Origin: Nemertoderma westbladi | Lineage: Eukaryota > Animalia > Xenacoelomorpha | DNA length: 64,000 nucleotides | Assembly: GCA_032718475.1 (NCBI GenBank) | Contig: JAUCBJ010001318.1 | Location: 56,904-120,903 of the forward strand | Reading direction: 5' to 3' | Shown: in pieces, positions 12,901 to 35,743 of the stretch | Position numbering within the stretch: the first letter of the stretch is position 1 | How the letters are laid out: the number at the start of each line of letters is the position of its first letter | Translations under genes and position numbers: made by a program | The notes under the pieces: model-generated | The model's database searches: none | Seen by the model: only the letters and a program-made list of their open reading frames with translations | Told to the model about the DNA's origin: nothing

Positions 12901-14439
12901 CCCGATAAACCCCTGTATGTATTATAGTGGTGGTGATATTACACCAATGTAATGTACATCTACTGTTTGGAATAAACATAAACATACTTAATATGCCGCT
13001 TATTAATATCGACACTACTTTAATTTATAATTTAAATAAATAATATAATATAAAAAATGTAGGTCATGTATACAATTATAATATAATTGTTAGAGTTAGA
13101 TTAACTTACAAACTTCTCGACGATGGAGACACCGACATCGGCGATGCTACCGAGAACTGTGATAAAGTCGAACACGTTCCATCCATCATAGAAGTAATAC
13201 TACAAAAATAAAAGAGTTAACGATAACTAACAGTTGTGTAGCTATGACACTGATAAAATGGGAAAAAACGTTTCAGATGACGCGATATACAACATTACAT
13301 GCTGGAAGGAATTTAACAATGAGAAAGAAATAATTCAGAACAAATATCAAAATGTTAATATAAATTAACAATCAAGTGAGGTAGTTCATACTGTATAGAG
13401 GCCAACCCCGACAACTTTAGGACTATAAGTTTTAAGTAAACCTACTACTACTACTACTACTACTACGATAGGTAAACAAGCCGGCACAGCATTCTTAAGT
13501 GAACCTAATTGTAAACAAACAGTCTTTACGAAGTTTTTATGGAAAATTATCCAACATATAATATAATATAAAGAGTGGGTTCCTACAGTATCATATTCAT
13601 AATATAAATAATATCCGTTCATAATAATTGCTACAAAAAGAATGTGGCAAACTGAAAAGGAATTAAAAGCAAGCTATAAGAGTAGTATGAGAAGATAGGA
13701 ATGGAAATTATAACAAAGATCAGTAAGTCAGACAAGCAATCAACACGCACTACATAAATATTAGGGCAAACTAAATAATAAAACTACTAAATAAAAAATA
13801 CCCTCAGACTATAAGCTACTCAACGCTAGTCGGATATGCGGTTCTTTTGTAAATCGAAAAACTACCACCTCCCTCCCCTAGCACAAGCACCCCTTGGTCG
13901 CTAGGTTATTTCCAATTGGAAGTTACAAAATTGACAATCAAATTTGGGAGCACTGAAATGTAATTCGCACAAATAAATCGTAGATAGACAGGATTTGATA
14001 ATGATAATTTTTGCTAAAACTGTGATATTCAACCTGATATTATTCACCAACTAAATCACACACCATAACAAATGCAGCAAAGATAGGGAAATATCAGGCA
14101 TTGCATAATCGTTAAAGTCAAGGAAATGTGAGGAAAACATAAGAAAAAAGTTAAATCATATCGAAAAAAAAAGAATCAAGTAGGAAAAATGATAATACAG
14201 TAGTAGGAAAACATTGTGATTTAGTAATAATAAAGTGTTATAAAGTTTAGGAGGCCAAAGCTGAAATTCATATGAAAAGAGTTAAGTGAGAGACAAACAT
14301 TCGCATAACCTATTATATCAGCTACCGGTACCTGACTCAAAGCGATTATTTTTAGAACCGCTTCTAGTGTAAAGAATACAGTGAATGTGACATTCACATA
14401 GAAGAGACCAACATCAATACTTTCGTCCATTTCGTAAAA
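3780..14439 (-). CDS. Voltage-gated calcium channel alpha-1 subunit, Cav2 (P/Q/N/R, cacophony/unc-2-like) family; partial, multi-exon (domain IV to EF-hand region)
   Basis: Ten GT-AG exons with compatible phases translate to Cav2 domain-IV hallmarks: [40 protein letters not shown], FRCxTGExWQ, [39 protein letters not shown]. Confidence 0.95.
4357..6758 (-). repeat. 32/34-bp minisatellite whose unit is the last ~17 nt of the 6742-6869 exon plus its GTAAGT splice donor
   Basis: Minus-strand unit TACGATCC(CC)ATGTGCTAC|GTAAGTTAATCTCTA; about 70-75 copies by length. Confidence 0.97.
6742..6869 (-). CDS. Cav2 exon: end of IVS6 and start of C-terminus ([43 protein letters not shown])
   Basis: cag acceptor, gtaagt donor; 128 nt, phase 0-2; near-invariant Cav motif. 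Confidence 0.96.
7674..7848 (-). CDS. Cav2 alternative exon pore-B: [20 protein letters not shown]...[14 protein letters not shown]
   Basis: tag acceptor, gtgagt donor; 175 nt, phase 2-0; TGE retained. Confidence 0.9.
8221..8458 (-). CDS. Cav2 alternative exon pore-A (IV P-loop to S6): [20 protein letters not shown]...[13 protein letters not shown]
   Basis: tag acceptor, gtatgt donor; 238 nt, phase 2-0; selectivity-filter TGE retained. Confidence 0.88.
8696..8790 (-). CDS. Cav2 exon: IVS5-P loop ([32 protein letters not shown])
   Basis: tag acceptor, gtaagt donor; 95 nt, phase 0-2; NNNF and LLLFR motifs. Confidence 0.93.
9707..10461. repeat. AT-rich ~19-bp minisatellite (TTTAACATGTTTAATTTTA and variants), quasi-palindromic
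   Basis: Tandem units read directly. Confidence 0.93.
10816..11016 (-). CDS. Cav2 alternative exon S4-c: [67 protein letters not shown]
   Basis: cag acceptor, gttgga donor; 201 nt, open, phase 0-0; lies within ORF-track entry 10735..11049. Confidence 0.9.
11983..12183 (-). CDS. Cav2 alternative exon S4-b: [67 protein letters not shown]
   Basis: tag acceptor, gtgcga donor; 201 nt, open, phase 0-0. Confidence 0.9.
12715..12912 (-). CDS. Cav2 alternative exon S4-a (IVS3-S4 linker, S4, S5): [66 protein letters not shown]
   Basis: cag acceptor, gtcagc donor; 198 nt, open, phase 0-0. Confidence 0.9.
13110..13199 (-). CDS. Cav2 exon: IVS3 ([30 protein letters not shown])
   Basis: tag acceptor, gtaagt donor; 90 nt, phase 0-0; WNxFDF motif. 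Confidence 0.95.
14332..14439 (-). CDS. Cav2 exon: IVS1-S2 loop and IVS2 ([36 protein letters not shown])
   Basis: tag acceptor at 14440-14442, gtaccg donor; 108 nt, phase 0-0; [12 protein letters not shown]2 motif. Confidence 0.92.
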
Positions 14440-14512
14440 CTATAAAAAATAAAAATATTATTTAGTTAACCAACAAGTTTAAGGGAATTATAGAAGATTA
14501 TAGTACCAACCA

Positions 14513-16021
14513 CATCATTCCAATATATTTATTTGTTTTATAACGCAAAACATGTTTTACGGTGGGAAGCATAACCGCACAAGATCAATTAATAGCCATA
14601 CTTTAGTATTAATGAAAAATCCGAGAGACAGTCTATCGGTTTTAAATTTCGCGAAGCAAATGTTACCAGGACAGACCAAATTTTTAGTTGATTCCTATCA
14701 AGATGCAACAATTGAGCCATTTTCACATTTCTTAATTGATTTACGACAGGAAACACCCGAACATTTAAGATTTAGATCGGATATATTTCGTAATCATAAT
14801 TGTTACATTAAAAATTACATTGACTATAAACGTAGCGAAAATAATAATAATAATAATAATAATGATAAATAATTAATATTTTGTGACAATTTTCAATAAT
14901 GTTGCAACAATGAATAGACTTGTGCAGAAATATCGTAACGAACTGGAATTTCTACGCAGCGCTACCCCTCAACAAAGAACTTATTTTATTAACCATACCG
15001 CCAGTAACGAATTAATACGACACATTGTAAATACTGCATTAAATGTTCTAAAAGGCAATGTACAATTGACCCCTCATTCATTTAGAAATATTCGCCGCTA
15101 TAAGAAGGTATTGAAATCACTCAACCGTAAGACAAAAAATATATCAAGTTACAGAAAAAAGTTAAGCAATCAATCTGGAGGCATACTACCGTTTCTAATA
15201 CCCTTACTCGGCATTGGTGCGAAACTAGCCGCAAGTGCCGGAGCCGCTGCCGCTGGGGCGGCTATTGCGAAAAAAATTAACCGTGGACGGTAGGCAATAA
15301 TGGTTAAAACAGGAGTAACATTTAGAAAATTATATTTAGTATCGAGTAAACCGTTAGCTACTGATTTAAAACCACAAGATATACCTAGAGTAAACACTAC
15401 AAAAAGAAAACCCTTTAAAACATCAACTTCGAAGAAAATAATTAAAAAATTTCAATTGTTCTTACGGTGATGCCCTTTATAAGAGATTTGAATATACATA
15501 TTACTTGTGGTTGTCGAAAAGATGCCTCGCAAGATGAAACCGATTTTAAGCCGAAGCTTAGACAAAAAACTGTTAAGAATTTATTTAGATCCTTCATCCC
15601 CCGCGGGATTTGCAAGTGTTGCAAAATTAGCAAAAGCTGCAAACATCAAACCGACGCAAGCTCAGAAATGGTTGAGCTGACAAAAGACATACACCCTTCA
15701 CGCTCAACGTAGACAACATTATCCAACATCTAAAATATTTACGGGAGGCATAAAAGATATATATATGATAGATCTGGTGGATATGCAGCAATATAAGTCA
15801 CAAAATAATAATTATAACTATATATTAACATGCATTGATGCCTTCAGTCGGCTTGCTTTTGGCTATGCTATAAAAACAAAAAAGGGTGATGAAATTATTA
15901 GTATATTGCAAAAAATATTCCAGAAAGGAAAACCAAACAGAATCGCCACGGATCAAGGGTCTGAGTTTCTAAATAAATCTGTAAGGAAATATTTAGATAC
16001 GTTAGGTATACAGTATTACGT
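14513..16021 (+). mobile_element. Internal fragment of a Polinton (ATPase 3' half, core-like ORF 14910-15293, small basic ORF, 5' part of integrase with a nonsense codon), inverted relative to the main copy
   Basis: Reverse-complement match to ~32580-34080 (about 95% by eye); ORF-track proteins nearly identical to those at 33727, 33306 and 31993; TGA at ~15678 interrupts the integrase. Confidence 0.93.
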
Positions 16022-19000
16022 AAACTTAAAATTTTTCACAAAGTCATTAACTGAAAACAGTATCTAGCATATATCCAACGTTTAATTTTACATTTTTTTT
16101 TTTAGTCAAAGGTAGATTCACTGACATTGTTCTAGAACTTAATATAAATCTGAGCTAGACATTGAAGCACTATCTTAAGGTTGGTGTGACAATGTGTGAA
16201 ATATATTTCATGTATTATGATCAAGTGAGATATTTGTTGTGATTATAAAAGCTAGTATGTTTGTTTAGTTAATAAAATAATAATAAGGTTATGAAATTTT
16301 ATTTCTATCTGACTAAACTTACATTTCTTTTGTTTCAACTTCAGATTTACTTTCTTAATCCGTTGTAAGACAAGTTTCAGATGAATCAGGTGCTCTGTAA
16401 ATGTAATTGATTTTACTAATATACAGTATCATCAATAAATACATGGAATTGTTTATCTTCTTCAGTTGAAATGCCGTTCAATAATTTCTCCATAGTTTGT
16501 TGGAAAGTAGCTGTTTCTACAGAGTGATGCTGGGTTTTAGCACTACTAATTTGATATTTTTTTATTGCGAAATTAGATTCACTGAAAAATTCCATGAATA
16601 AACTTTGCGAGACAATCCTCAACTATTCTTTGACAACAAACTGTCTATCTACAGTATTTATTTTGAGTAAAAAATGTGAAAATTAAAATGTAAGCTTTAA
16701 AGCTGAGTAAGTACTGTTATATTTATTTAAAAATATGAAATTTCGTCAGTAAATGTGAGACTGTTGTAATCAGCTATTTTTTTAGTAAAAAATAATAATC
16801 TTACAGTATATATGTTTAAAACCAAACATCACCCTATAGAAACAATATTAACTTATATACTATTTACTTAAAATTCTTCACAAACTTATTAACTGAAAAC
16901 AGGTTTTCAACATATATACTGTAAGTTTATTATTTTTTACTAAAAAAAATAGATGATTACAGCAGTCTCGCAATTACTGAAGAAATTTCATAAGCCAAAA
17001 AAATTCATTCTTCTTGAAAAGCCATTCATCTTGCCCTCCAATCAATCCCAAGGAGAGAAGCATAGCTGTTCGAAACTGGGTGGCTAAGAACATGTAGGAA
17101 AGATTTTCGAATTACACAACCAGTATACACTTCTCATTCTCAATCTGCTTCCCAAAAGAAGGGAACGGAACATCATAACACTTGAAAGGCTAGCAAGATT
17201 AACCAACGCAATCATCGTCGCACCAATTCATTAGATAACCTTCCCTACACAAAGCCTGTTGCTATTGAAATCGGGTGTGACAGTGAAGCACATAATAATA
17301 TTAGGCTCAGGCAGCAGTTTATTTATCAAGAACCAAATCCGAGGAATCCAGCTATGAATTCCCTGAAGACACAACCAAAGGAAACATCAACAGAGGCAAT
17401 GAATATGACTCTGACAAAACTAAGCAAAGCTATGACATCATATGAATTCATTGAAACAGCCAGGGCGGAGAGCATCATGCAAAATCCAAAAGAAATGTTT
17501 GCTAGGTCCCTAGTGCCACTTGGTTTAGAAAAAGTCCACAACTTCTACAACTGACATATCTAGAAGTCCACAACTTCTACAACTGACATATCTTCACCAT
17601 CAGAGACTGATGAGTATATAACAGTAGATAATATATCAGACAATTCAAATGAAACTGAAATAGATCCTACTTACTCATACAGCATAAAGGAAAATAAAGG
17701 TGAATCCCTGCAAGGAAGTCAGGTACCAACAAACATAAGAAAAGACTCTGTAATAATCACAAACCCATCAGTGAAATGTCCCTCTACTCTAGTACAAGTC
17801 CTCAAAAACAATGACACCTGGCAAGAACCAAAAAGACCTGCCAAACCAACCTTCAAATCAAAGATCCAGATGCAGCACAACGTTAAGACTGAAAACAAAT
17901 ATAGTGAACTAGATAATGATACCAAAATTGTCATACTTCTACAACAACAGACTGATTTCTTGGCGAATCTAAATAATGTTTCCAAAGAAACTGTCAATCT
18001 AAGAAAATCACAAGGTAGTAGCAAGAATGAACACAACAACTTTAAGCAACATCAAACGAGATACGAACAAGAAACCCAACGAAGCACCCCATCCAACAAA
18101 CGGAAGCAGTAGAAGCAGCACAGATATGAAGCGGAATAATAAAGGGTTTGATCTACACTACAAAACCTCTAGGGATTCATACTGACACAATAACATTCAA
18201 GCCAACTATAATGGTAATCAATATAAATCTATCCCGCAAGATAATAATAGGCATACGGAGTATGTGAGGAACTCTTGGAGACATGCCTCAGAATCATCTC
18301 GACACTAAAGTCAAACATACCAGCAGTAACAGAAGCACAGAGTGAGTAGACATGATTATCCACATCAACACTTCCCAAACCCTCATCTAAGAGACCAATC
18401 TGAACATACCTCGTACCCCAGTAAGGACCAATGTGACATAACCTATGACAACAGGTATTACAACCGATCCAACAGAAGTCATATGGCTAGGAATCGTTTT
18501 TAAGCTAGCCCCGAGTATCACAACTGGAGACCTAAATTTCAAAAATGCTGGAAATACGTGTAATATTTTGCAGAGAAGTGAAATCAGTCGCCATAGGTAG
18601 CATATGAAGGATGATTTGCAACATGACAGCAAATTCTATTAAGTTCTAGAACAATGTCAGTGAATCTACCTTTGACTAAAAAAAAATGTAAAATTAAACG
18701 TTGAATATATGCTAGATACTATTTTCAGCTAATAATAAGTTTGTGAAGAATTTTAAGTTAATATTTTTCTGTAGCATGATGCTTGGTTTTCAACATATAT
18801 ACAGTAAGTTTATTATTTTTTAGTAAAAAATAGATGATTACAGCAGTATCGCATTTACTGACGAAATTTCATATTTTTAAATAAATATAACAGTACTTAC
18901 TCAGTTTTTAAGACTTGCATTTTAATTTTCACATTTTTTACTCAAAATAGATAGATAGACAATTTGTTGTCAAAGAATAGTTAAGGAATGTCTCGCAAAG

Positions 19001-19684: not shown

Positions 19685-20098
19685 AAAAATTGCGAAATTA
19701 AATTTAGTTACTGGTGAAAAATAGTAGAAGTTACCTGTAGACACCTCTAGCGTCTGTAAAATAAAGGTTGGTAAATATGAAAATACTGGTTGCTGAAAAA
19801 TAGCGATTTGAAAAATAGTAGACGTTACCTGTAGACACTCGTAGCACCTGTAAAATAAAGGCTTATGATTGGACGGATGAGTAGCGTTGGGTGACTAATA
19901 ACGCCTCTAGCGGAAGATGCGGGAACTTGAGAAGTTGCCATGGTTACGGATTAAATGCTGACATCTGATTGGTTGAAATAATAACGACTACCGCTAAAGG
20001 TTGAAATAGTGGCTTCTGATTGGACAGAGTACCAGAAATGGACGGTAATGATGGGCTACGGGTGACCATACCGTAGTGTCATAGCATTCTATACTACT
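19685..20098 (+). repeat. Polinton terminal sequence ending ...ATACTACT, in DIRECT orientation relative to the main element's right terminus
   Basis: Colinear similarity (~85% by eye) to 36328-36648; ends with the canonical Polinton ACTACT terminus. Confidence 0.85.
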
Positions 20099-20679: not shown

Positions 20680-21233
20680 TTTATTATTAACTAGAGACTT
20701 TTCTTTTTCAGTTTCACACTGACTTGTAAAGGTAACTTTTTATCGCAAAGCGTGATTATTATAAAGTATTTGCATGTAAAGGTGACTTTATTGAGTAAAT
20801 ATTGGTGATAGTTTATATTTAATGTGAGCACGGGATTAGGTATAAAACATTCGCATGTAAATGCATGAGTTTACACCACCATAATAAAACATTAGCATGT
20901 AAAACCTACTTTATCAATGAAAATTAAAAACGCATTATGCACATCTTGGTTTAGACTTGATTTTATTATAAAGAATTCAGTTGTAAAAGCAACTTTATTT
21001 ATGATATTAGTTTCCAATGTAACTGTTATTTATGATTGGTTGGTATAAGTAGAAACTTGAAATATATATATATAAAGAGCTCAACTGATTCAATCGAGCT
21101 CATTCTGAAAATATTAAATTAATTAAAGTTTAGATATTATATTTTATTTGTGTTGAGTAGCTTATGAATTTTTTTGATTATATATATAACAATATTCATA
21201 TTAATTTTAAATTGTTTTTAGGATAATAAAGAG

Positions 21234-24200
21234 ATGGATAAACAATTGAAATGTCCATTTTGTCCTCTTCAAATAGACACTTCAAGAATACAATTGTTTT
21301 AATTGTCGAGTGAAATGTTCACGTGAAGAAATATGTAAACGACATGAATCAACTACGGGATGTAAAGAAATGAAGTTTTGCGTGTATGAAAAAACATGCC
21401 CTACTTGTAATAAAGAGTATTTATATGAGAATTACTTACGTCACGACTGTCACCAACGTTATTATCATGTTAGACCACCACCACAACGGAACCAAAACAA
21501 TACTATCGTATCTAGAAAAAGACTGAAATCTGGTCAAGGTTCATCAATTTTTAACATTGAACGAGCCGCACACGATAACCGTTTAGAAATCTATGTTTAC
21601 AATCTTCCGAATGATGAAGATTTTCCTGATATTCATTCATCATTAATTAAAATTCTACCTCACATCCAAACTTTATTATTAGGAAAACTTAGCGAAATGA
21701 ATGTACTTAGACCCTGGCTAGGTGTGAATATACTCATGTATCGATCACATTTTTCAGAGGGTGATCAAGAAGAAGCTTTCTATTTTAGTTCTTCAGGTGG
21801 TGCAGTTAATACCGTAGATTCACATGAAAGTTTTGACACATGGTTTGAGTATGTATTAGAAAAATTAATGCAAAAAATAGCCATGTTTAACACTCGTGGC
21901 TCAGGGTGGCGTGTTAAATCTTTATTAAGGGTTGAAATTAAAGTAGCGGAATCCAAGTGTAGGTCGTTACTATATAAGGGGCATGGATATATGGAATTAC
22001 CTAAGGCTCTATCAGGTAAACAGTGTGTTATAAATATACAAACGGCTGATAATGATTGTTTTAAATGGGCAATTATAGCTACAAAATTTAGTAGCAAAGT
22101 GAAGATAAACAAAAACCGTACTTCACAGTACAAAAATTATATGAGTCATTTCATTTTTGACAACGGCAACAAAGATTATCCAACAGAATGGCCGCTTGCA
22201 ATTAAACTTTTTGAAAAACAGAATTCAGCATATATAATTAATTTATTACTCTACGACAACAATCGAGTATCTATATTAAGACAGGCACCATTTAGTAAAA
22301 TCACTCCAGATAAAGAGTTATTGAATATATTACTTGTAAAAAATAAGAATACGAGTAAACAATCACATTATGTTTGCATAACTAACTTGAATCGTTTGAT
22401 GAATACGAGAGCTCTTCATACTCGTGGTAGGAAATATTGTGAACGGTGTTTGGCGCCTTTCTACACCAATGATGTTCTAGAACGTCACCGTCTTGCTTGT
22501 TATCGAGGAAAAAGTCAAGTTGAGAAGCTACCGTCTGAAAAAAGAACTCACATTAGCTTTAGAAATTTAGACAGAACATTACCAGCATTGTTTGTAATAT
22601 ATTTTGACATAGAATCTGTTTTGGAGCCAGCCACCAACAGTAAATTTATTCAGAATCTTATTCCATGCGCTGTAAGTTATTTAATTGTTCCTAGTGCCGA
22701 ATTAATCAATCCACCAAAATTTTATTTGAAGACCTTTACAAAAACAATCGACAACAACTGTATTCAAGACTTTTTAGACTCTGTATATAATGACATCACC
22801 CAATTATATAAGTGGTCAGAAACCCACACGAGAGAGAGAATGATACTTAATGATGTAGATAAGTTAAGTTTTTGGAAAGCTAAAACTTGCTTTTATTGCA
22901 ATGTTTTATTTAAGGATAAGTCTGAGAAAAACAAACATCACTCACATATTACTGGTAACTATATAGCGGCCGCTTGTAACGCATGTAACCACTCTTTATC
23001 GTTGAAACGACACATGTATATACTTGCTGCACACAACTGCAATCTCTACGATTTGCATTTTCTTTTGCAAGTTGGTTTTACCAACAACCGATATTCCGAT
23101 TGGGATATAAAGGTAATCCCTAAAAATTCTGAAAGGTATATTTCACTAAGCATGCATATACCAGTGAAAGATGAAAAAACTAAGATCGAGCTATGTGTCT
23201 TAGACACATATCAATTTTTATCCTTTTCCCTAAGTACTTTAGTTGATTGTTCAACAAAGGATATAGACAGCGAGGATATAACATCAGTTCTAACAATTAC
23301 TGAACAGCAAATGAAATATTTTTATCCAAATTTAAATAATGCAACAATTAAACGAAAAGGTATATTTCCCTACGAGTATCTGACAGATTTAAATAAATTC
23401 AATGATTTGAAATTACCATCAATAGACAAATTTTATAGTAAATTAACACAAAATACCTGTACACCCGAGGAATATAGTTTTGCCAACGCATCATGGAGTC
23501 AGTTTGACTGTGTGAATCTCAAGGATTATCTTTTAGCATACTTAAAACTCGATGTTTGTCTCCTCGCTGATATATTTGAGAACTTTAGGAGAGTGTGTAG
23601 ACAAAACTACGAATTAGAAGTAGTTTATTATTGCAGTATCGCAGCTTTCACTTATGATTGCGCCCTGAAATACAATAAATGTAAGTTAACATTAATAAAA
23701 GATTACCAAACATATAGAGATTTTGAAGCATCTATTAGACGAGGGGTTTCATTCTGTCGAAAGCATTACATAGAATCAAATATACCAGATACTGATAATT
23801 ATGATCCAAGCAAGGAAGAGTGTCATATTTTCAATATAGATTTTAATTCCTTGTATTCGGGAAATTTAAGTAAAAAGCTACCTGTTTCAGGTTTTGAACA
23901 AGTCAACGTTACATATTTAGAGAATGCTGCTCCAGAAGAACTGATAAAATATTTAACAAATCTTGATACTGAAGGTGATATTGGGTTTTTCTTAATTTGC
24001 GATTTGAAATATCCCAAAGATATTCACGATCGTACATTAGAACTACCCTTAGCTCCAGAACATTTAAGTATAAATGAGACAATGCTTTCACCTTATATGA
24101 GGGAACAATTTAACAATGTTTGTAAACAAAGAGGCACTAATAGCAAGTATAAGATGTGTGCACCGAAACTTATGTTGACACAATTCGATAAAGAATTCTA

Positions 24201-25205
24201 TCATGTAAATTTAAAACTGTTAAAATTTTATATAAAACAAGGTTTAATTGTTACTAAGCTCCATAAATTATATTCTTTCCATCAAGACTTTGTATTTAAA
24301 CCCTATATAGATTTTAATATTAATCAAAGGCGACTAGCAAAAAGTTATATTGAAACAGCTGTCGCGAAATTGCTGAACAATTCTTTATTTGGTAAAACTA
24401 TAGAGAATATACGGGATCGATGCAACTTTCGTATTGCAAATAGTAAAGAAAAATGTGACCAATTAGTCAAACAAATAAATCATGAAAATTTCATGATTTA
24501 TAACGATTCCTTATCGGGACATTTATTAGTGAAAGACTCTGTAACTCTCGATAAACCAGTCTATGTAGGTAGTACTGTCTTGGACTTGGCTAAATTGGAT
24601 ATGTATCAGCTGTATTACGATAAATTGTACCTATTGAGAAAGAATTAAACTGCCGAATTGAAATTGTAGCATCAGACACGGACTCTTTAATAGGTTGTTA
24701 CTATAATACATCGCAGAGTAATTTCGTAAAAGCCTTAATTAAAAATAATATTTTAGATACATCCAATTACCCCAAGGATCACCCTCTCTACAGCGATAAA
24801 AATAAATCCAGGCTCTATTACTGTAAAGACGAACTAGCCTCACGTGAAATTAAACAAGCGGTATTTTTAAGACCAAAGTTATATTCAATTTTGGAATTCA
24901 ATGAAACAAATATACGACGGGCGAAAGGAATAACAAGAGCTGTCGTGGATAAAAATATTTGTCACAAAGATTATTTGAGGGCATATTACGATAACGAAGA
25001 AATTTCAAAAGAAACACATCAATTTCAGAGTAAATTACACAAAGTGTATACTATAGCACGAGATAAGTTTGCTCTCAGCGCATTTGATGATAAACTTTAT
25101 TGGGTTAATAAAAATCATTCGCTTCCCTGGGGTCACTATCAAACAAAGGTCGAAAAACCCATGAAAAAAAAACAATATACCAATTTATCGGGAACCAAAC
25201 AATGA
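21234..25205 (+). pseudogene. Protein-primed family B DNA polymerase (pPolB) with terminal-protein, vOTU-like and endonuclease-VII-like domains; frameshifted
   Basis: GSGW, DCFKWAI...HYV, YFDIES (ExoI), CxxC...HSHITG...CNACN, HNxxxYD, KGIFPYEY, DFNSLY, KLLNNSLFGK; frameshift near 24630 separates the catalytic SDTDS (~24672) and C-terminal LRPKLY/AKGI/FDDK motifs. Confidence 0.95.
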
Positions 25206-25747
25206 ACTATCAGATAGTCAATAAGAATGTAAGTTGCCAGCAAGTGTCAGCGATTAATTTGAAAGAATTAAAAAATCAATTATCTGGTAAACACATACTC
25301 AAACCAAATCAGTTTATATATAAGATATTTGGTGCCACATTATTAATATTTAAAAATGGTCGTATTACATTATTAGGTAGTAAGTATAATTTCCAAAAAG
25401 TAAAAAAGCATATATTTGATAAAACTAGTATTAATTTGATTTTAAAATCTGTTAATTTATGTACTTATATTTTTAGTATTAAGTCTGTAGTCTATAGGTT
25501 ATTGATAAACAATACCGGGTTTTATGTTGTCTTTGATAATGTGCAACTTCAAGTTATATATGAACCTGAAATTTTTAATAATTGCAAAATAAGAATAAAT
25601 AATACCGTAGTCATTTGCTGCTTTCATACCGGTAAATGTACTTTAATGTGTTCACCTAGCAAATTTCACATTTATTACCCTATATTTAGTAAACTTGTTA
25701 ATTATTTATTAATGTTTGGTGTTGTGACTTTAGGTGTTGGTGATTAG
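25202..25747 (+). CDS. Divergent TATA-box-binding protein (TBP)-like protein encoded by the Polinton
   Basis: 181 aa two-repeat pattern: QIVNKNVSC...INLKEL, TLLIFKNGRITLLGSK (cf. TBP TALIFSSGKMVCTGAK), YEPEIF (cf. YEPELF), CFHTGKCTL (cf. IFVSGKVVL); ATG overlaps the pPolB stop (ATGA). Confidence 0.72.
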   Translation: MNYQIVNKNVSCQQVSAINLKELKNQLSGKHILKPNQFIYKIFGATLLIFKNGRITLLGSKYNFQKVKKHIFDKTSINLILKSVNLCTYIFSIKSVVYRLLINNTGFYVVFDNVQLQVIYEPEIFNNCKIRINNTVVICCFHTGKCTLMCSPSKFHIYYPIFSKLVNYLLMFGVVTLGVGD

Positions 25748-25837
25748 AAGGTGAAAATTAAACATTATTATTTTTCGATCAATCAATCAATCGGTAGTTA
25801 GGGAAAACTAACCTCGTTTGAATAAGCATGACTCTCA

Positions 25838-26815
25838 CGGGCTGACTGCGTGTCTAGCTGCATGGCTGGCTGCGTGCCGCGAGGCTGACTGCGTGCCGCG
25901 AGGTTGACTGCGTGCCGCGAGGCTGGCTGCGAGGCTGACTGCATGCCGCGAGGCTGACTGCGAGGCTGACTGCGTGCCGCGAGGCTGACTGCGAGGGTGG
26001 CTAGACGGCTGCGAGGTGGACTGTTTCCCAGCAGTGTGGCTGACTGCGCGCACATCCGATTGTAACTGGCTCACGATATTGTATACATTGACTCAGTTTG
26101 TTACTGCGGGTACTGTTACATTAATACTGTGGTACCGGTACCGTACTGCAGTACAATGCTAATCAAAAGAAATCAGCATGCTCTATCTGACAATGCTGTT
26201 ACATCAAGAACAGCGACAGTACTGCAGTACTGTATTGTTTGGGTAGGTGATCTAATCCCTATATGTGAGAGCCACGCGTCCCTTCTAGGTTATGACAGCA
26301 GTATGCTAATCAAGGTTCGGGTAGACAGCAGTATCCTTATAGGTGAAAAAAAAAACAAATGCTATTACATCAGATTACTGCTGTACTGATAAAATGGATG
26401 ACAGTTGTGGATAGGAGCTGCGAGGTTGACCACATCCCCCGCAGTGTGGCTGACTGCGTACACATCTGATTGTAACTGGCTCACGATATGTATACATTGG
26501 CCTAGTTTGTTACTGCGGGTACTGTTACATTAATACTGTAGTACTGGTACTGCGGTACAATGCTAATCAAAGGAAATCAGTATGCTCTATATGATTATGC
26601 TGTTACATCAAGAACAACGACAGTACTGCAGTACTGTATTGTTTGGATAGGTGATCTAATCCCTATATGAGAGACCCCTGCGTGTAATCCAGATCATGAC
26701 AGCAGTATGCTATTGCTTCAGATTACTGCTGTACTGATACCAGTAGACTGTGACTACAGTGTTGGAAGAGTAAAACACTACCAGTACTGATAAAGCGGAT
26801 GACAGTTGTGGTTAG
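25838..26815. repeat. GC-rich GCGAGGCTGACT/GCGTGCC micro-repeats followed by a diverged ~420-bp tandem duplication in the Polinton convergent intergenic region
   Basis: Units at 25840-26015; ~26010-26415 repeated at ~26420-26815. Confidence 0.85.
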
Positions 26816-27180
26816 GCTTATAATAAATTATTGAATTTATCAGTACCGGTACCAACAGGTTAACACTACATCCTATACAGTTTTTGTTGCATTTCTGACT
26901 AATATTACTAGTCAACTACTGTATGTGTTATTAGTTTGCGATGTATAGGATGTTTCGCAATACCAGTATATCTATATTAGAATGATATCGAGAATACTTA
27001 CTGTACATGTTACGTCTACGTCATATTGTTAAATGTGCATGGTTAACCTACCGCAATTGACTCTTTTTAGAGAACTTGTTGTAAAAAAATTATATTTTAT
27101 TATATTTTTATATTAACATCAAGATCATCACCAAAATAAAATTATATTATATCCCATCACATTACATGCTTAGAGTAAAC

Positions 27181-27780
27181 CTACAGTACATCTTCCACCG
27201 CAGTTATTTCTTTCTGTTTATCATCATCATCAGTCGCAGTTAAACGCTTTCTCATGAAAAAATGTAGCATCTCATACCCCCCAACGCGTTTTGCTGAGCA
27301 ATACCGCAGACAGTTATCCTTTGTGTTTAAGTGGAACGCACATTTATTTTCCAGTGGAATAAATTGATCGTGAAAGCGACAGGGGGTTAAATATTCGTGA
27401 TATTGCTTATATATTCCCAATCTCTCCACCGAATTTGGCGCGAGAACATCGAGTTGGGAAACTAATATTGCCCGCTTCAGCAACCCAAATACATGAATGT
27501 TTTTTTTATATTTTAAATGTCTCTTCATATATTTTTTAAAGTCATCTTGAGAAATGTCCCCGTAGTCCCAGGGCAAGTGAGAAGTCATATCCCGTAAATT
27601 GTTTACGTGGGCTGCATCTAAAGCTGATAACTTAATATTAGGTGGGCCTTTAATTAAAAACGTCTTTATATTAGTTTTGGTGTAATTAGAATCGAATATA
27701 GCAAATTCTTTAAATACTACCGGATACTCCTTATTGTCTATCTTATAATATTGAAAATCAACAAAAATAATATTATCCAT
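27181..27780 (-). CDS. Polinton accessory protein, putative DEDD/DnaQ-like nuclease fold
   Basis: Intact 199-aa ORF; IIFVDFQ...FKEFAI, LPWDYGD and a C-terminal CxxH...C pattern. Confidence 0.55.
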   Translation of the reverse strand: MDNIIFVDFQYYKIDNKEYPVVFKEFAIFDSNYTKTNIKTFLIKGPPNIKLSALDAAHVNNLRDMTSHLPWDYGDISQDDFKKYMKRHLKYKKNIHVFGLLKRAILVSQLDVLAPNSVERLGIYKQYHEYLTPCRFHDQFIPLENKCAFHLNTKDNCLRYCSAKRVGGYEMLHFFMRKRLTATDDDDKQKEITAVEDVL

Positions 27781-27811: not shown

Positions 27812-28203
27812 TTACAACGCTTGTTGGTTTATTTTATAATAATTAACAAGCCATTTATATAATATTATTTCATTTATTTCCACATTATTTGTAAACGCTC
27901 TCATTGGATAGATTGTGTGAATACGATTTACCAAATAATACAGACAGTACAGACCGCATGTGGTCCTCCTAGGGTCTTGAAATTGTTTGCGAGTAGTACG
28001 CCACCTTGCGGAATTTTTCTCAAGCCATTTTTGATGCATATCGCGATCCAATGAATCCCAGGCAGATGCTCTTTATCGGTATTTACTATTAAGCCATAGT
28101 CTCTTCACTTATTATTATCTAATTTAGGTAATTTGTTAGCTGGAAACGCACCCAAATAGTGACCACCCACTGGAAACATATCAAGGTCCTCTGTAGATAA
28201 CAT
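27812..28203 (-). pseudogene. Adenain-like cysteine maturation protease, frameshifted and internally deleted
   Basis: YLGAFPAN; in a shifted frame LIVNTDKEHLPGIHWIAI (catalytic His); QDPRRTTCGLYC (catalytic Cys); the expected YFDS segment is missing. Confidence 0.85.
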
Positions 28204-28205
28204 AC

Positions 28206-29465
28206 TTAATCGATATGTATTTCTTTCCTGCTATTTAAACTTAATGATTGATCATAAATATTAAAAACGATTACATTTATGGTTTCAACCAACGGTTCAG
28301 CAAATCTTAATTTTAATTGGCCATTAGTATATATCGACGGTTGCGGATCTCTAACATAGCCGTCGGCGGTTAAGTCCCAGGATAGGATGGGGCAATTACC
28401 TAAGTAGGTTTCATGGTCTATATTATTACCTCCATAACCGTTAATATATGTATTAATGTTCTTCATTAATTGAGTATACTCAAAAATATATGTTCCATCT
28501 GTAAAATTAGGCTCGTATATTACACCACCTACTGGAAGACCGTCTACAATCAGTTCCGCGCGTCTAAGGTTAAAATGTTCAAATTTCAAGGGATTGCTAA
28601 TTAATTCTCCCGAATAAGCGTTATTTGTTATGAAGCCAATAATAACTAATTTGGGTTTTTTACCATCAAATATGTTTGTTTGGGTGTAATTTGTGGTTTG
28701 AGCGGGAAAAGTAAATGTTGTCACCTCCTTTTTTTGAAATTGATATTCAATATCGTAACTCTCTAAACCTTTTAGGTGACTGCTTTCTATTACAGGATTA
28801 ACCTCCATTCTAGGGATTAGAATCTTTATTTCATCTAATTCTAGTCAAAGATTTGTCACCGCGTTTGCGTTTGGAGTGATTTTAAAAATAAACGAATTTG
28901 ATACTTTTCTAAAATGCATTCTTAAATCATACCCGGGTTGTATTATTTTAGTTTCAGTATCAAAATCAATCGTCAATCCACTTACAAATTGCATTTGTTT
29001 ACTAAAGGCAACGTCAATAGGATGCGTGCCAGGATCAATTTCATTTCCGTGCTCAGATAAAGGTTGATGAAAGCCACCCGCAACCAGTAGCCCATTTTTT
29101 TCCTCGTAAGTTGTAAATAATAAATTGGATAAGTACGACTTGTAGAAATAATGGTTATTGCTATTTTCAACCTGCTTCTCATTAAGGTCTATTTTAATAT
29201 CACTCCACATAGTTTCAGCGGGGTAATTCAGCATATATATATGGGAGTTTTCAAGTCGTCTATCCCATCGTACAGTACATTTTGTAATTAATAACACATC
29301 TTGTAGTTTCGTATAGAATTCATTGGATCTCGGTACAAGGAACGTGACCTCCCTAGATTCACTTCTGAGATTAGATACGGGGTAAATTGTTTCATAATGC
29401 TTTGCTTTAAATTCAGTCTGTATTGGCTGTGTAGAAAATAAATCTAATTCCTTAATAATTGACAT
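28206..29465 (-). pseudogene. Polinton major capsid protein (double jelly roll) with one in-frame TGA
   Basis: ELDLFSTQPIQT N-terminus, PKLVIIGF, NPLKFEHFNL, WDLT, LKLRFAEPL; ORFs 28845..29465 and 28206..28808 are the same frame split by TGA at 28845-28847. Confidence 0.88.
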
Positions 29466-29467
29466 TA

Positions 29468-30028
29468 TTAAAAAATACTTTTTTCGCAGTGTTTCAATTT
29501 GCCTTTTATATTTCTCTTTTTACTACGTCGATGATGTATGTTCATAGACATTGGTCTAGCGGGTCGCTTTAAATCTCTATAAACTTTTTCTACAACTGAC
29601 CTTGTTGACTGTTTCATTTTATTTAATGCTTTATTAATAACCGTATTAGCCTGCTGATGTAAGACCCGCTTACCTTTTGGTATTACGTGTTGTCTCATAA
29701 ATTTTGTGGTAAATGGTAAATCTTTCTGTAAAACTTTTTTAGCTAATGGCTTACCAAATTTTTTCAATGTCGATAAAGCGTCTGTAAATATACCTTCTCC
29801 GTGTTGATTTGCCCGCATACCTCTACGATAACGCTGAAAACGACGTTGTTTTAAGTTTGTACCAAATGTGCCAATTTGTTGACCGTAAGGGTCAATATAT
29901 GAACCACCTCGAAAAACAGGAACTTGCGTCGACCCTCTGGTACTTCTTCCACCTTTAAAAACAGCAAGATTCGAGTCTGCACCACCATATTGAGGTTTAC
30001 TGTATCTTTGAAATAAATCAGAATCCAT
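29468..30028 (-). CDS. Basic virion core-like protein with putative adenain cleavage sites
   Basis: K/R-rich; QYGG, FKGG, FRGG, QHGEGIF motifs; lies between penton and MCP as in other Polintons. Confidence 0.65.
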   Translation of the reverse strand: MDSDLFQRYSKPQYGGADSNLAVFKGGRSTRGSTQVPVFRGGSYIDPYGQQIGTFGTNLKQRRFQRYRRGMRANQHGEGIFTDALSTLKKFGKPLAKKVLQKDLPFTTKFMRQHVIPKGKRVLHQQANTVINKALNKMKQSTRSVVEKVYRDLKRPARPMSMNIHHRRSKKRNIKGKLKHCEKSIF

Positions 30029-30029
30029 T

Positions 30030-30884
30030 TTAATTTATTCGTTTAAAGTGTAATGTAATAGATGTTGTCCCGTATTCAAAATTCAAATCTTTTCCTTCTT
30101 TGTCTGTTATTTCAATATGAATGTATGTTATCTTATATGATTTTTTTACAGGGATATAATGAATTGTATCCTTGACAAATTCTTTATTTATTACGCTATC
30201 ATATTTCACGTCATCAGGTATCGCAACACGGCGAAGTAAAGCTAAACCAAAGTCATTAATATATTGATTTTCAATTATATTAGTAGTCACGTACATGTTC
30301 GACTTAGGTTCTGGAATAGAATTGGGTGGTTGAGGGCATAAAAATACCATCTGGTAAGCTTTTTCTCCATTTCCGATAACCTTTATTAAATAACCCTTTA
30401 TGTTATTTTTCGTCTTCAAAATAATTTTAAAATTTGGATTTAAATTCGCGCCGAGATTATTTTCAGTAATTCCAAAATAATAGGCTAATTGTTGACCTAT
30501 AAATAACTCTCGCACAGTTTTCCCTAAAATAAATTGCAGCCTATTTTGCTGAGTATTTTCAACTATTTGTAATTTATCTTTCAACGCCCCTGTGTTAAAA
30601 TAATCTATAATGTCATTGATACTGTAGAACAAACCGGATGGAAGTGTATCCTCAAAATTTTTTTTTCCTTTTTTTAATAAAATAACATTCTCTACATTGT
30701 TATACATGGACGGCAACGTTGCTAAGTAAAATATACTTTTTATACCTACCACCCAGTTTTCGTTTGGGTTTATAGGTAAGGCGCCATGGAAATTGATCTG
30801 ATAATTACTAGCGCTATTGCGGGGAAACTCAATTGGACAGGAGTTACTTGGTAGTCTTACGTAGAATTCATCCATCACTGCCAC
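30030..30884 (-). CDS. Minor capsid (penton-like) protein 2
   Basis: FYVRLPSNS..EFPRNSASNY N-terminus, W.VG, MYVTTNIIE, LLR, Y.PV, I.I.ITD..G, ITLHFKR C-terminus. Confidence 0.85.
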   Translation of the reverse strand: MAVMDEFYVRLPSNSCPIEFPRNSASNYQINFHGALPINPNENWVVGIKSIFYLATLPSMYNNVENVILLKKGKKNFEDTLPSGLFYSINDIIDYFNTGALKDKLQIVENTQQNRLQFILGKTVRELFIGQQLAYYFGITENNLGANLNPNFKIILKTKNNIKGYLIKVIGNGEKAYQMVFLCPQPPNSIPEPKSNMYVTTNIIENQYINDFGLALLRRVAIPDDVKYDSVINKEFVKDTIHYIPVKKSYKITYIHIEITDKEGKDLNFEYGTTSITLHFKRIN

Positions 30885-31740
30885 CCCGTATTAACTTAAG
30901 TGTTATAACAGTGCGACCTCCGCTGAAGTTAATTAATTGGCCTTGCCCATCACGTAAAGTAATTAAGATTGTTTTTAGTTTTTTATTCAACAACGGGTAA
31001 TAGCAAATGCTCTCGTATTCGTGATTAATATATTTTCGATTTAATTGCGTTAAAGGGCAGGTTCTTAAGAGCGGAGCTAAAGCGTCACCAACAAATGAGC
31101 TCTTAATAATATCTGTGTATATAAAGATAGTGTCTTTATTACGTGTTATATTCGTGGGAGCTGGAAAATCTAAAATGCCAATTTCCGAAATTTTTGGCCC
31201 ACTATAATTTAAAATTAATATCGGCTGTTCTATATTGCTTAATTCATCTACTGTAGTGGTACTGTATATATCCCAATTCGGAATATCCGGATGATTCCGA
31301 TCCAATAACGGTTTTAAGCCTAGAATTTGTATTAAATCACCACGTAGACTTAATTGTATTTTTTTCAACTGTTTAGGAAATTTAAATTTAATTCTAGAAT
31401 TATTTGTATTATAAATGAATTCGAAATCTCTATATTTCGCTTCAGAATTAAACAGTTTATTTATATCATCAATAATGACTTGAATAGAGTTATGCATACC
31501 AGGAAATAAACTATATAATTTGGCATCTTTTGCATCTACCCCGATTGACAGTGAGATTTGAGTTTGCAGCGTAATATTACTGTATGTTGCTTGGTATTGA
31601 AGCTCGGCAAGCCCAATTTTAGCGTTTGGACCAATATATAATTCTTCGGCTAAATCAACAGTAAACTCGCTAGGATTATTATTGGGGTAAGTGTTTAATG
31701 AGCTATCTGAAAGTAGAGTGATATATGTATCTGTGGCCAT
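30868..31740 (-). CDS. Minor capsid (penton-like) protein 1
   Basis: YITLLSDSSLNTYPNNNPSEFTV, IGLAELQY, FIYTDII..SFVGD..APLLR, YYPL, LRDGQG..INF. Confidence 0.88.
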   Translation of the reverse strand: MATDTYITLLSDSSLNTYPNNNPSEFTVDLAEELYIGPNAKIGLAELQYQATYSNITLQTQISLSIGVDAKDAKLYSLFPGMHNSIQVIIDDINKLFNSEAKYRDFEFIYNTNNSRIKFKFPKQLKKIQLSLRGDLIQILGLKPLLDRNHPDIPNWDIYSTTTVDELSNIEQPILILNYSGPKISEIGILDFPAPTNITRNKDTIFIYTDIIKSSFVGDALAPLLRTCPLTQLNRKYINHEYESICYYPLLNKKLKTILITLRDGQGQLINFSGGRTVITLKLIRGGSDG

Positions 31741-31992: not shown

Positions 31993-33081
31993 TTATTGAA
32001 TATGCTGTACCCACGACTGTTTCTTGGATCCGATGAATCGGACTAAATATTCTTTCTTCCCATTGCGTACACGTTCTTTAAGTTTGCCAATATTTTTATC
32101 AATTGCTAGATAAATATTACTATTCGGGTGGACCTTTTGGAGTTCGTGAGAATAAAATGAGCCCTTTATTATAGCTCCAGCGCTGTCCTTATTATCGAAC
32201 ATTACAGCAGGTACTCTATCCAACCTGACACGATGAATAATAAATAATTCACGTGTCCATTGTTCACGATAGCCTTTAGCAAAAGCAGTACGAGCGATAG
32301 ATAATCGTACTGTATCTCCAACTTTAAATTTTATTTTCTTATGATTAATCTGTCTATATTTCCCATATAATCTATTCATTAATTCAGTTTCAATAAATTT
32401 ATAAACTTCAATAGGTGTCATTTTTATTGTCCTATGATATGACCTATTATAAGCCGAGATAAGCTTAGGTAAAATTTTAATCCAAACATTATTTCCTCGT
32501 TGTGTAAAAATTTTGAACATCTTTGTTTTTAATGTTCTATTGAATCTCTCGACAATAGCCGCCTTATTCACAGAATACATTACGTAATACTGTATACCTA
32601 ACGTATCTAAATATTTCCTTACAGATTTATTTAGAAACTCAGAACCTTGATCAGTCGCGATTCTGTTTGGTTTTCCTTTCTGGAACATTTTTTGCAATAT
32701 ACTAATAATTTCAACACCCTTTTTTGTTTTCATACCATAGCCAAAAGCAAGCCTGCTAAAGGCATCAATACATGTTAATATATAGTTATAATTATTATTT
32801 TGCGACTTATATTGCTGCATATCCACCAAATCTATCATATATATATCTTTTATGCCTCCCGTAAATATTTTAGATGTTGGATAATGATGTCTACGTGGAG
32901 CGTGAAGGGTGTATGTCTTTTGCCCGCTCAACCATTTCTGGGCTTGGGCTGGTTTGATGTTTGCAGCTTTTGCTAATTTTGCAACACTTGCAAAACCCGC
33001 GGGGGATGATGGATCTAAATAAATTCTTAACAGTTTTTTTTCTAAGCTTCGGCTTAAAATCGGTTTCATCTTGCGAGGCAT
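31993..33081 (-). CDS. Polinton retroviral-like DDE integrase with C-terminal chromodomain-like tail
   Basis: IDLVDM, CIDAFSR, TDQGSEF, ERFNRTLK, YNRSYHRTIKMTP, FKVGDTVR, EYLVRFIG. Confidence 0.95.
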   Translation of the reverse strand: MPRKMKPILSRSLEKKLLRIYLDPSSPAGFASVAKLAKAANIKPAQAQKWLSGQKTYTLHAPRRHHYPTSKIFTGGIKDIYMIDLVDMQQYKSQNNNYNYILTCIDAFSRLAFGYGMKTKKGVEIISILQKMFQKGKPNRIATDQGSEFLNKSVRKYLDTLGIQYYVMYSVNKAAIVERFNRTLKTKMFKIFTQRGNNVWIKILPKLISAYNRSYHRTIKMTPIEVYKFIETELMNRLYGKYRQINHKKIKFKVGDTVRLSIARTAFAKGYREQWTRELFIIHRVRLDRVPAVMFDNKDSAGAIIKGSFYSHELQKVHPNSNIYLAIDKNIGKLKERVRNGKKEYLVRFIGSKKQSWVQHIQ

Positions 33082-33132
33082 CTTTTCGACAACCGCAAGT
33101 AATATGTATATTCAAATCTCTTATAAAGGGCA

Positions 33133-33303
33133 TCACCATAAGAACAACTGAAATTTTTTAATTATTTTCTTTGAAGTTGATGTTTTGAAGGGTTTTCTTT
33201 TTGTAGTATTTACTCTAGGTATATCTTGTGGTTTTAAATCAACAGCTAACGGTTTACTCGATACTAAATATAATTTTCTAAATGTTACTCCTGTTTTAAC
33301 CAT
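33133..33303 (-). CDS. Small basic Polinton ORF (MVKTGVTFRKLYLVS...), 56 aa
   Basis: Open and conserved in both the main copy and the inverted remnant (starts at 15300). Confidence 0.55.
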   Translation of the reverse strand: MVKTGVTFRKLYLVSSKPLAVDLKPQDIPRVNTTKRKPFKTSTSKKIIKKFQLFLW

Positions 33304-33305
33304 TA

Positions 33306-33689
33306 TCACCGTCCACGGTTAATTTTTTTCGCAATAGCCGCTCCAGCGGCAGCGGCACCGGCACTCGCGGCGAGTTTCGCACCAATGCCAAGTAAGGGTA
33401 TTAGAAATTGTAGTATGCCTCCAGATTGATTGCTTAACTTTTTTCTGTAACTTGATATATTTTTTGTTTTACGGTTGAGTGATTTCAATACCTTCTTATA
33501 GCGGCGAATATTTCTAAATGAATGAGGGGTTAATTGTACGTTACCTTTTAGAACATTTAATGCAGTATTTACAATGAGCCGTATTAATTCGTTACTCGCG
33601 GTATGGTTAATAAAACAAGTTCTTTGTTGAGGGGTAGCGCTGTGTAGAAATTCCAGTTCATTACGATATTTCTGCACAAGTCTATTCAT
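33306..33689 (-). CDS. Polinton conserved core/membrane-lytic-like protein
   Basis: LNVLKGNVQLT motif and QSGG|IL.FLIPLLG, a cleavage site followed by an amphipathic tail. Confidence 0.75.
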   Translation of the reverse strand: MNRLVQKYRNELEFLHSATPQQRTCFINHTASNELIRLIVNTALNVLKGNVQLTPHSFRNIRRYKKVLKSLNRKTKNISSYRKKLSNQSGGILQFLIPLLGIGAKLAASAGAAAAGAAIAKKINRGR

Positions 33690-33726
33690 TGTTGCAACAT
33701 TATTGAAAATTGTTACAAAATATTAA

Positions 33727-34407
33727 TTATTTATCATTATTATTATTATTATTTTCGCTACGTTTATAGTCAATGTAATTTTTAATGTAACAATTATGAT
33801 TACGAAATATATCCGATCTAAATCTTAAATGTTCGGGTGTTTCCTGTCGTAAATCAATTAAGAAATGTGAAAATGGTTGAATTGTCGCATCTTGATAGGA
33901 ATCAACTAAAAATTTGGTCTGTCCTGGTAACATCTGCTTCGCGAAATTTAAAACCGATAGACTGTCTCTCGGATTTTTCATTAATACTAAAGTATGGCTA
34001 TTAATTGATCTTGTGCGGTTATGCTTCCCGCCGTAAAACATGTTTTGCGTTATAAATCAAATAAATATATTGGAATGATGAGCTACCTTAGTAAACAATA
34101 CAGTTAATGCTGTACTGGACTCAGTTTCTGTTAACAAATCATCTATAATTAATAAATCTCGACTATTCACTAAACTATCTATATTTTCGGGCAAGCCTTT
34201 GTAAAGGTGAGTAATACCGGGAATAGTCGGGGGATTGCTCCCATAACAATACAATACTCGCAAGGGGGCTTCGTTGAAACAACCATTCTTGTGTTTAATT
34301 AAATTGCTTACAAAGGTTGACTTTCCGGAACCCGATGGCCCTGAAATTATCATACTTGTGCCCATTTGAAAGTTTAAATTATATGGACCTGAATTAAAGT
34401 CAGCCAT
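33727..34407 (-). pseudogene. A32/FtsK-like DNA packaging ATPase with an in-frame nonsense codon
   Basis: Walker A GPSGSGKST, Walker B LLIIDD; TGA at 34057-34059 is TGT (Cys) in the remnant copy at ~14534. Confidence 0.92.
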
Positions 34408-34683
34408 TTATTATTATTAAGATATATCAACAATACAATACAATATAATATAAATATCAATATCAAATTATTATTAAGATATATCAACAATACAATATAA
34501 TATAATATAAATATCAATATCAATATCAATAAACCCTCACCATTACTATGTATATAACAATAATTGTTGCAACTACAATATTAGAGTACTGTATATTTAA
34601 TTAACATATGACGCCGCTACAGTATGTGACGCTCGCTGCAACAAAAGGTGCTATTTCCAATTATAGTATAGACTGATGTAATT

Positions 34684-35136
34684 TCAAGCATGGTGAGCAT
34701 CTTTATACGCGAAATAATGATAGGTAACATCAGCGGATTGGAAATCACTTCCCGAGAATTTCGCGCTAATGATTTTTTTATGTTCACTGCTAAAAAAATA
34801 AGGAATATAGTAGCAACAGCGTCGTACTACATTTCTATAAAAAATATTCTCCAATATTGTAAATAAATCTCCCGGATCATTACTTTCTGCAGAAATATAA
34901 GTTATATTTCGAAGCTCTTTCCAATAATAGGGTTGATAACTTGCCAACTTTATATTAAACTTAGATATGGGTGCGCGACAAATAGGACAAATTTTAGAAC
35001 AATAATTATTCATTTCGGAATATTGTACAATACATTGTACGCAAGTTGCATGTTTATTTTCACATTTATAATAATCTCGATGTTGTTGCAATAACTTAGA
35101 ATAGCAAACTGGACATTTTTCATTTAAAATATCCAT
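34684..35136 (-). CDS. RING-finger (C3HC4-like) protein, putative E3 ligase
   Basis: CPVC...CENKHATCVQC...CPICR; likely start MDILNEK at 35136. Confidence 0.8.
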   Translation of the reverse strand: MDILNEKCPVCYSKLLQQHRDYYKCENKHATCVQCIVQYSEMNNYCSKICPICRAPISKFNIKLASYQPYYWKELRNITYISAESNDPGDLFTILENIFYRNVVRRCCYYIPYFFSSEHKKIISAKFSGSDFQSADVTYHYFAYKDAHHA

Positions 35137-35299: not shown

Positions 35300-35743
35300 T
35301 CAAGAATCAATGATATTATCAACATATTCAACATTATCTGTTGATTCTTCAGGTTCGACAAAGGATTCTTTTGAAATCATTACAATAAAGAAAGACATAA
35401 TTTCGTAGGGGCTATGCCGATTTAGCCGTATTTCAAACTTTTCACCAGCTTCGTTGTATTGTGTAATAACAATTAACCCCTCTATCATGGATAATAGTAA
35501 GATGTTGCTTAATTTTCCCTCATGCTCAACTTTCAGGTTGTAATCTAAGAGATGAATACTATTATCAGAAGCATCAATATCAATTGAGCTTAAAACTTTC
35601 CTGGCTTTTTCAGAAAACTCAATTTTATATTTATCATCTCCCTGACGGTAAATTATATAATCAATAACAATATAGGCTTGACCATCTTCTGCAAAAAATG
35701 AATGCCTTACTATTGGCATAACCATATCGGAATCAGAAGACAT
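35300..35743 (-). CDS. Acidic Polinton protein of unknown function
   Basis: Intact 147-aa ATG ORF with the same AATAATG start context as neighbouring Polinton genes. Confidence 0.6.
   Translation of the reverse strand: MSSDSDMVMPIVRHSFFAEDGQAYIVIDYIIYRQGDDKYKIEFSEKARKVLSSIDIDASDNSIHLLDYNLKVEHEGKLSNILLLSMIEGLIVITQYNEAGEKFEIRLNRHSPYEIMSFFIVMISKESFVEPEESTDNVEYVDNIIDS

Follow-up and report, generated by a model that had tools for sequence, protein, structure and literature searches.

The closest functional analogue of the protein described here is ORF24 of the gammaherpesvirus KSHV, a TBP mimic whose viral TBP fold directs host Pol II to late genes and which sets a precedent for a viral TBP driving such genes through the host polymerase (PMC12529657). 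The passages on ORF24 in that paper describe a protein without the TFIIB acids, with a predicted TFIIB clash and extra domains, that works together with ORF34, whereas the protein considered here is a bare core of 181 aa that keeps these acids and, judged from its residues, is not of the herpesvirus ORF24 type. The giant viruses (Nucleocytoviricota) also encode two-lobe TBPs in which the key Phe residues are kept, as at least three of them are in our protein, and structural matches were found in BFVD. According to the sections on viral TBPs in PMC7221094, two acids of the TBP stirrup contact TFIIB, the first of them being conserved in only ~40% of viral TBPs; nearly all TBP-bearing viruses also encode TFIIB, and the TBPs that have lost the acids are mostly paired with a viral TFIIB. 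The same sections describe giant-virus TBPs as mostly without the acidic stirrup and accompanied by a viral TFIIB. Our protein, in contrast, keeps the acids and no TFIIB or polymerase family was detected among the Pfam-screened frames of its element, so that the initial annotation, which called TBP homologs typical of giant viruses, was misleading on this point.

TBP-like genes are also known from mid-size dsDNA viruses, since genes labelled 'TBP' appear in the genome maps of MELD viruses according to the legends of Figs 5 and 6, where the Fig 5 viruses have an adintovirus-like PolB (PMC8502044; bioRxiv 10.1101/697771). The MELD-virus genes are known from the legend entry only, and those passages discuss no function for them. 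Within the full-text literature (most subscription papers lie outside it), the adintovirus paper alone connected TBP with viruses related to Polintons; one supplement of this paper contains no TBP term, and no functional study was found. The accessible portions of 10.1101/2022.05.25.493380, 10.64898/2026.06.19.733378, PMC12220804 and PMC13037468 held no relevant TBP content, and the relevant part of PMC10675990 describes TBPs in other, mirusvirus-linked elements. What is already known are the TBP-like genes labelled for related MELD viruses; what is reported here is an animal Polinton whose TBP is under selection and has been heavily remodelled.

In the window, by which we mean the whole stretch of 64,000 nucleotides of contig JAUCBJ010001318.1 of Nemertoderma westbladi that was analysed, the open frame at 25202-25747 (+) was observed to be intact and to encode 181 aa, with the motifs LIFKNGRITLLGSK, YEPEIF and CFHTGKCTL. 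The product is basic, with a pI of 9.6 and 21 K/R against 6 D/E. It matches PF00352 in Pfam with an E of 3.5e-10 and 40 bits, and since this score is above the cut-off (22.9) and the match falls in two stretches, one for each repeat, it is not a chance match. The NCBIfam TBP models also match, weakly, and hhalign gave a probability of 95% against 28 cellular TBPs. The product belongs to the TBP family and the homology is real; the Pfam and hhalign results bear out the initial annotation, which had recognised the size and the two-repeat motifs of the TBP core. It had also placed the ATG of the intact frame over the pPolB stop and this holds as well, the overlap reading ACAATGAAC and the stop being the TGA of the last piece of a pPolB gene whose frameshift the annotation does not mention. 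A single-protein word-based search found 0 homologues among 40 candidates, a phmmer search of the PDB returned nothing relevant and tblastn against phage gave no match. Near the TBP start, a search for a splice acceptor found four YAG sites, none of them after a clear pyrimidine tract. A poly(A)-signal-like hexamer, ATTAAA (25757-25762, +), lies 9 nt past the TBP stop.

Among 1.84 billion representatives the sole match of the protein was P0002 (31%, E 8e-4), and profile searches reached 12 unnamed mini-TBPs and then the cellular TBPs. A tree was built from 58 of 235 proteins, hand-picked to comprise our protein, the 12 mini-TBPs, 25 eukaryotic and 20 archaeal-like TBPs, with no animal TRF2 or giant-virus rows; our protein has a branch of 8.08 changes per column and is not placed by these 58 rows. 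The mini-TBPs (P0002, P0003, P0005, P0006, P0122-P0124, P0126-P0129 and P0133), which come from short metagenomic contigs, were observed to form their own clade (99/94) apart from the eukaryotic and archaeal TBPs, and they are possibly from small DNA viruses. Like our protein, most of them have 151-180 aa and no N-terminal extension; unlike it, they keep the 17-residue Phe spacing where this was checked, and our protein does not clearly join their clade. When viral contigs were searched with queries made from TBP, pPolB, the integrase and the mini-TBPs, no related Polinton locus came up; the one match that was reported gave no locus. No pPolB, capsid or integrase match was found in 13 other loci, which gave one weak P-loop match, and by ORF content five of six of these loci look archaeal and one giant-virus-like.

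From an alignment of 82 TBP rows, AlphaFold produced a model (pLDDT 75, pTM 0.61) in the form of a two-lobe saddle, which Foldseek matched to TBPs at E 2e-9. The model aligns with TBPs over 161-173 residues in both lobes (Z 11.2-13.8, rmsd 3.5-5.0), whereas the next non-TBP protein has a Z of 7.0. The structure that the initial annotation had proposed to look for, a TBP saddle, is predicted with a Z of about 13 to TBPs, a result that is partly circular because the model used a TBP alignment. A single-sequence model was poor (pLDDT 41), with no TBP among its best 50 matches.

Residues were compared with those of the 28 cellular TBPs using hand-set anchors that are consistent with hhalign. The protein has in common with cellular TBP (PF00352; PDB 1mp9, 1ytb and 1cdw) the size of the saddle, F50, F125, F141, N7, both G(K/R) turns and the YEPE stirrup, but it is only ~20% identical, has Ser for the second Asn, has lost the P-G after the stirrup Phe and has no N-terminal extension. 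The residues kept are N7, K41, T46, L48, F50, G59, K61, V97, E121, E123, F125, R131, V137, F141 and K145, where E121, E123, F50, F125 and F141 fall in columns that are invariant in 28/28 cellular TBPs. The altered residues are N9, T56, L58, S95, N126, N127, K129, C139, T147, M149 and C150. Many of the altered positions face DNA in TBP-TATA structures, and the central Asn pair and the V-x-T-G residues have a role in reading TATA. Of the central pair, N7 is kept and S95 stands in place of the second Asn, which is Asn in 27/28 cellular TBPs, and V-x-T-G is altered in both lobes (T56/L58; T147/M149/C150). With so many conserved positions altered (S95 for Asn, T56, L58, N126, N127, C139, T147, M149 and C150), the protein could have weak or no DNA binding, and although it belongs to the TBP family it does not, by this residue test, appear to be a canonical TATA reader.

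The two lobes were observed to differ in how they have changed. Lobe 1 has a Phe-Phe spacing of 12 residues and lobe 2 one of 16, compared with 17 and 17 in cellular TBPs. The C-lobe pair F125 and F141 is present. In the N-lobe F50 is kept, and F38 aligns with the stirrup Phe by sequence and is followed by a 3-residue deletion, while the model puts F38 inside strand 37-42, the hairpin register of which would turn it toward the core. Because of this deletion, which shortens the first stirrup, and of the position of F38 inside the strand, no more than three intercalating Phe residues out of four are safely equivalent. The initial annotation had singled out the Phe pairs and the TFIIB-binding stirrup, and this was upheld for F50, F125, F141 and the stirrup glutamates; F38 is doubtful and the first stirrup is shortened. 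When TBP reads TATA, the 5' half falls to the C-lobe, which also contacts TFIIB, and the 3' half to the N-lobe. The damage would therefore lie mainly where the 3' half of TATA is read.

No TFIIB or RNA polymerase family was found by Pfam in any of the open frames of at least 40 aa at 19.4-36.7 kb (123/123), a screen that also missed pPolB and the capsid proteins and could therefore have missed a divergent TFIIB. Since the protein still has E121 and E123 and the screened frames of the element gave neither a TFIIB nor a polymerase family, host TFIIB is its likely partner.

The genes of the element are arranged as a plus-strand block, in which pPolB is followed by TBP, and a convergent minus-strand block (ORF147, RING, ATPase, ORF127, integrase, two penton-like, core-like, capsid, protease and ORF199). 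The main piece of pPolB (21370-24648, +) ends at a frameshift near 24624-24648 and has another break near its 5' end (~21270), and the C-terminal piece of 193 aa (24624-25205, +), which has a DTDS motif, is in another frame. The main piece has motifs of the Exo I-III and Pol A/B type, from which we take the gene to be pPolB, and neither a Pfam nor a PHROG family matched it. A repeat-rich non-coding region (25800-27100) lies between the convergent blocks. Beyond it on the minus strand are ORF199 (27181-27780; 199 aa, no family match), presumably exonuclease-like by its motif, a cysteine (adenain-like) protease in pieces (27812-28203, with the start at 28203; weak Peptidase_C5 match, E 0.082) and a putative major capsid protein (28206-29465; in-frame stop at 28845-28847), which we assume to be such from its position and motifs. 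These are followed by a basic protein of 186 aa (29468-30028), which we take to be core-like, and by two ORFs of 281 and 290 aa (30030-31740; no library match) that are presumably penton-like. The remaining minus-strand genes are a retroviral-type integrase (31993-33081; Pfam rve E 1.4e-11), ORF127 (33306-33689; 127 aa), a packaging ATPase (33727-34407; P-loop matches and a weak Pox_A32 match, E 0.0053; in-frame stop at 34057-34059), a RING-finger ORF of 150 aa (34684-35136; zf-RING_2 E 0.005) and ORF147 (35300-35743; 147 aa, no family). A tandem AT-rich duplication of ~57 nt was noticed directly upstream of the ATPase (34410-34530), each unit of which contains GATATATCTTAATAATAAT.

The two genes that mark a Polinton, pPolB by its motifs and a retroviral-type integrase by its rve match, are both present, and among the virion genes the ATPase and protease matches are weak and the capsid labels come from position and motifs. 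Polinton termini are inverted repeats with an AG start. Here the right terminal region (36020-36648) ends in ACTACT and abuts a Pao-type LTR, and a copy of it on the left (19771-20098), 85% alike to 36310-36648 and also ending in ACTACT, is direct and not inverted and lies in a probably rearranged insertion. A contig from public run X3 matches the element from 20099 and has 424 other bases before that point. Because the terminal repeat is direct and this contig diverges before 20099, the left end of this Polinton copy is likely to be rearranged. The copy is also decayed, as pPolB, the ATPase, the capsid gene and the protease are interrupted. ATTGG (CCAAT) boxes, all on one strand and spaced 50-200 nt, occur three times at 19868-20019 and four times at 36218-36569, the latter in the right terminal region; measured against the 2.7 per kb that the element has as background, both strands counted, the excess in the terminal regions is small.

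An inverted copy (95.6%) of the element's ATPase-to-integrase block (32580-34080) was found at 14513-16023 and is a fragment of a second element copy. A Pao/BEL retrotransposon (36648-54957), with 733-nt LTRs that are 99% identical, abuts the right end of the Polinton and carries an extra ORF of 1140 aa (37931-41353) of no clear family, and a further, inverted relative begins near 58-64 kb. Host voltage-gated calcium channel exons (Ion_trans and GPHH matches) were observed at 6738-14440 (-), and the Polinton likely sits in an intron of this gene. The S4-S5 exon of the channel is present in three paralogous copies (~12870, 12138 and 10971), with an upstream AG in each and a GT donor shown in two, and the pore-loop exon in two copies (~8451 and 7841); judged from sequence, these duplicated exons are candidate mutually exclusive exons for the voltage sensor and the pore.

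Copies of the element were examined by aligning contigs from 4/7 public runs to it, where X1 and X3 cover the whole TBP gene and X4 and X5 cover part of it. Public runs of the host show the element to be a many-copy family, with 23,608 contigs in X1 and 6,633 in X3 and 30/30 bins covered in 3/4 runs, and at least two subfamilies were noticed that are ~84% alike across part of the TBP gene. Our count of differences among copies of the TBP gene takes in the 40 best-supported of 63, which lie at 25284-25621. Twenty-two of these 40 differences are silent compared with 9.1 expected (none as high when the same changes were placed at random 20,000 times), 28/40 fall in third codon positions, there are 0 stops and no indels are among those listed. 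Rough arithmetic from the listed counts gives a dN/dS of ~0.27, and residue 121 is acidic in every copy where it varies. The silent excess and the lack of stops and indels among the listed differences indicate that the TBP gene is under purifying selection, which shows that it matters to the element. The gene is thus a maintained component of the element family rather than a host fragment left to drift.

The promoters of the late block were searched for the boxes that such a protein might read. TATAA was found 20-80 nt before 7/11 late-block ATGs, compared with 2.6 expected by position (nominal P 0.005) and 3.8 in dinucleotide shuffles (P 0.021); the enrichment does not hold up once every 5-mer is searched (family-wise P 0.68) and is weaker with a window of 25-150 nt (9/11, P 0.062). 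One of these sites is TATAA(GAG) at 33121-33125 (-), 44 nt before the integrase, and the others begin at 35206, 33768, 31814, 30907, 29510 and 27838 (-); all seven lie 32-79 nt before ATGs. The host consensus is broken after TATAA in 5/7 sites. The late promoters of herpesviruses, which are read by vTBP, have a TATT-type box; here TATTWAA was found before 1/12 starts, with 1.0 expected. Upstream of pPolB there is a canonical TATA run, TATATATATATAAAG (21063-21077, +), a candidate early promoter for host TBP, which confirms the TATA-like site noted initially at ~21065. For a second site noted at ~35840, TATATAAGAT is on the plus strand and points away from the capsid block, though the minus strand does have TATATAA 103 nt before ORF147. 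The capsid block had also been called AT-rich, and with a GC of 0.327 against 0.325 for pPolB it is no more so. The promoter evidence comes from one decayed copy and is weak.

We consider it reasonably probable that the selected and strongly remodelled TBP of this Polinton family serves to recognise promoters. We predict that it brings host TFIIB and Pol II to the genes for capsid, packaging and integrase, whose TATAA promoters are relaxed. Host TBP would start the pPolB-TBP block from the TATA run at 21063, and the element TBP would be made from this early unit, with translation either re-initiating at the ATGA overlap or having a start of its own. The C-lobe, where both Phe residues and the E121/E123 stirrup are present, would bind the 5' half of TATA and dock TFIIB, and the shortened N-lobe stirrup may relax the reading of the 3' half and admit TATAAGAG, TATAACAG, TATAACAC, TATAAACG and TATAATTT besides TATAAAAG. 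The outcome would be an early-to-late switch without a viral polymerase. More tentatively, and with some doubt, we suggest that animal Polintons of this lineage might have a one-protein late-gene switch, in which an altered-specificity minimal TBP plugs into host TFIIB and no viral TFIIB, viral polymerase or helper giant virus is needed.

The acidic stirrup could also serve a different purpose, where a protein that binds DNA poorly would mainly soak up host TFIIB (or Brf-type adapters) and dampen the transcription of the host or of a co-infecting virus. The TFIIB acids have indeed survived, in contrast to the first stirrup and a large part of the presumed DNA face, and the enrichment at the late promoters is weak. 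We nevertheless regard such a decoy, which the initial annotation had offered as the alternative to a promoter factor, as unlikely, as the protein is basic and has kept F50, F125, F141, N7, T46, L48, K41, R131 and V137, which is more than a pure decoy needs, and an element that probably relies on host Pol II would be damaging its own expression.

The symmetric swaps in both lobes, where V-x-T has become T-x-L and T-x-M, suggest a changed specificity, and the protein might read a non-canonical box of the TAAGA type that host TBP cannot use. TATAAGA was observed to precede the integrase by 44 nt and the core gene by 109 nt, and TCTTA, the opposite-strand form of TAAGA, was found in the 25-150 nt range for 5/11 genes (1.3 expected, P 0.003), a post-hoc test in the wrong orientation with scattered spacing. 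On the coding strand, however, neither TATAAGA (2/12 starts, P 0.15) nor TAAGA (4/12, P 0.12) is enriched, and none of the 4- to 7-mers upstream of the late genes passes family-wise correction (P 0.31-0.90), so that a private code of this kind seems improbable to us.

Since the TBP gene is directly behind pPolB on the same strand, its saddle might instead bind the AT-rich terminal or central repeats as a non-transcriptional DNA bender and aid pPolB initiation or integration, and bacterial TBP lobes are described in part of PMC7221094 as having other nucleic-acid functions. This adjacency is normal in a compact element: gene borders of -8 to +2 nt were found at four other places, so that the ATGA overlap is ordinary and the coupling of TBP to pPolB proposed in the initial annotation is not distinctive. 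A DNA bender would also not need to keep the TFIIB-specific acids, and we consider this role very unlikely. That the gene was captured from the host's TBP and now drifts along as a neutral passenger is hardly credible given the silent excess and the absence of stops and listed indels across copies, even though its branch is extremely long and the intactness of one copy proves little for so short an ORF.

The finding bears on whether animal Polintons could live as self-sufficient nuclear viruses and on the way in which their virion genes would be switched on. A selected TBP that keeps the residues for host TFIIB contact, in an element with no detected viral TFIIB, is a small and testable candidate for the switch of the virion genes, and the protein is in itself a natural TBP specificity variant. 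If the one-protein switch is true, it would be a third design beside the TBP-TFIIB pair of giant viruses and the multi-protein complex of herpesviruses, and it would provide direct evidence of Polintons as autonomous nuclear viruses.
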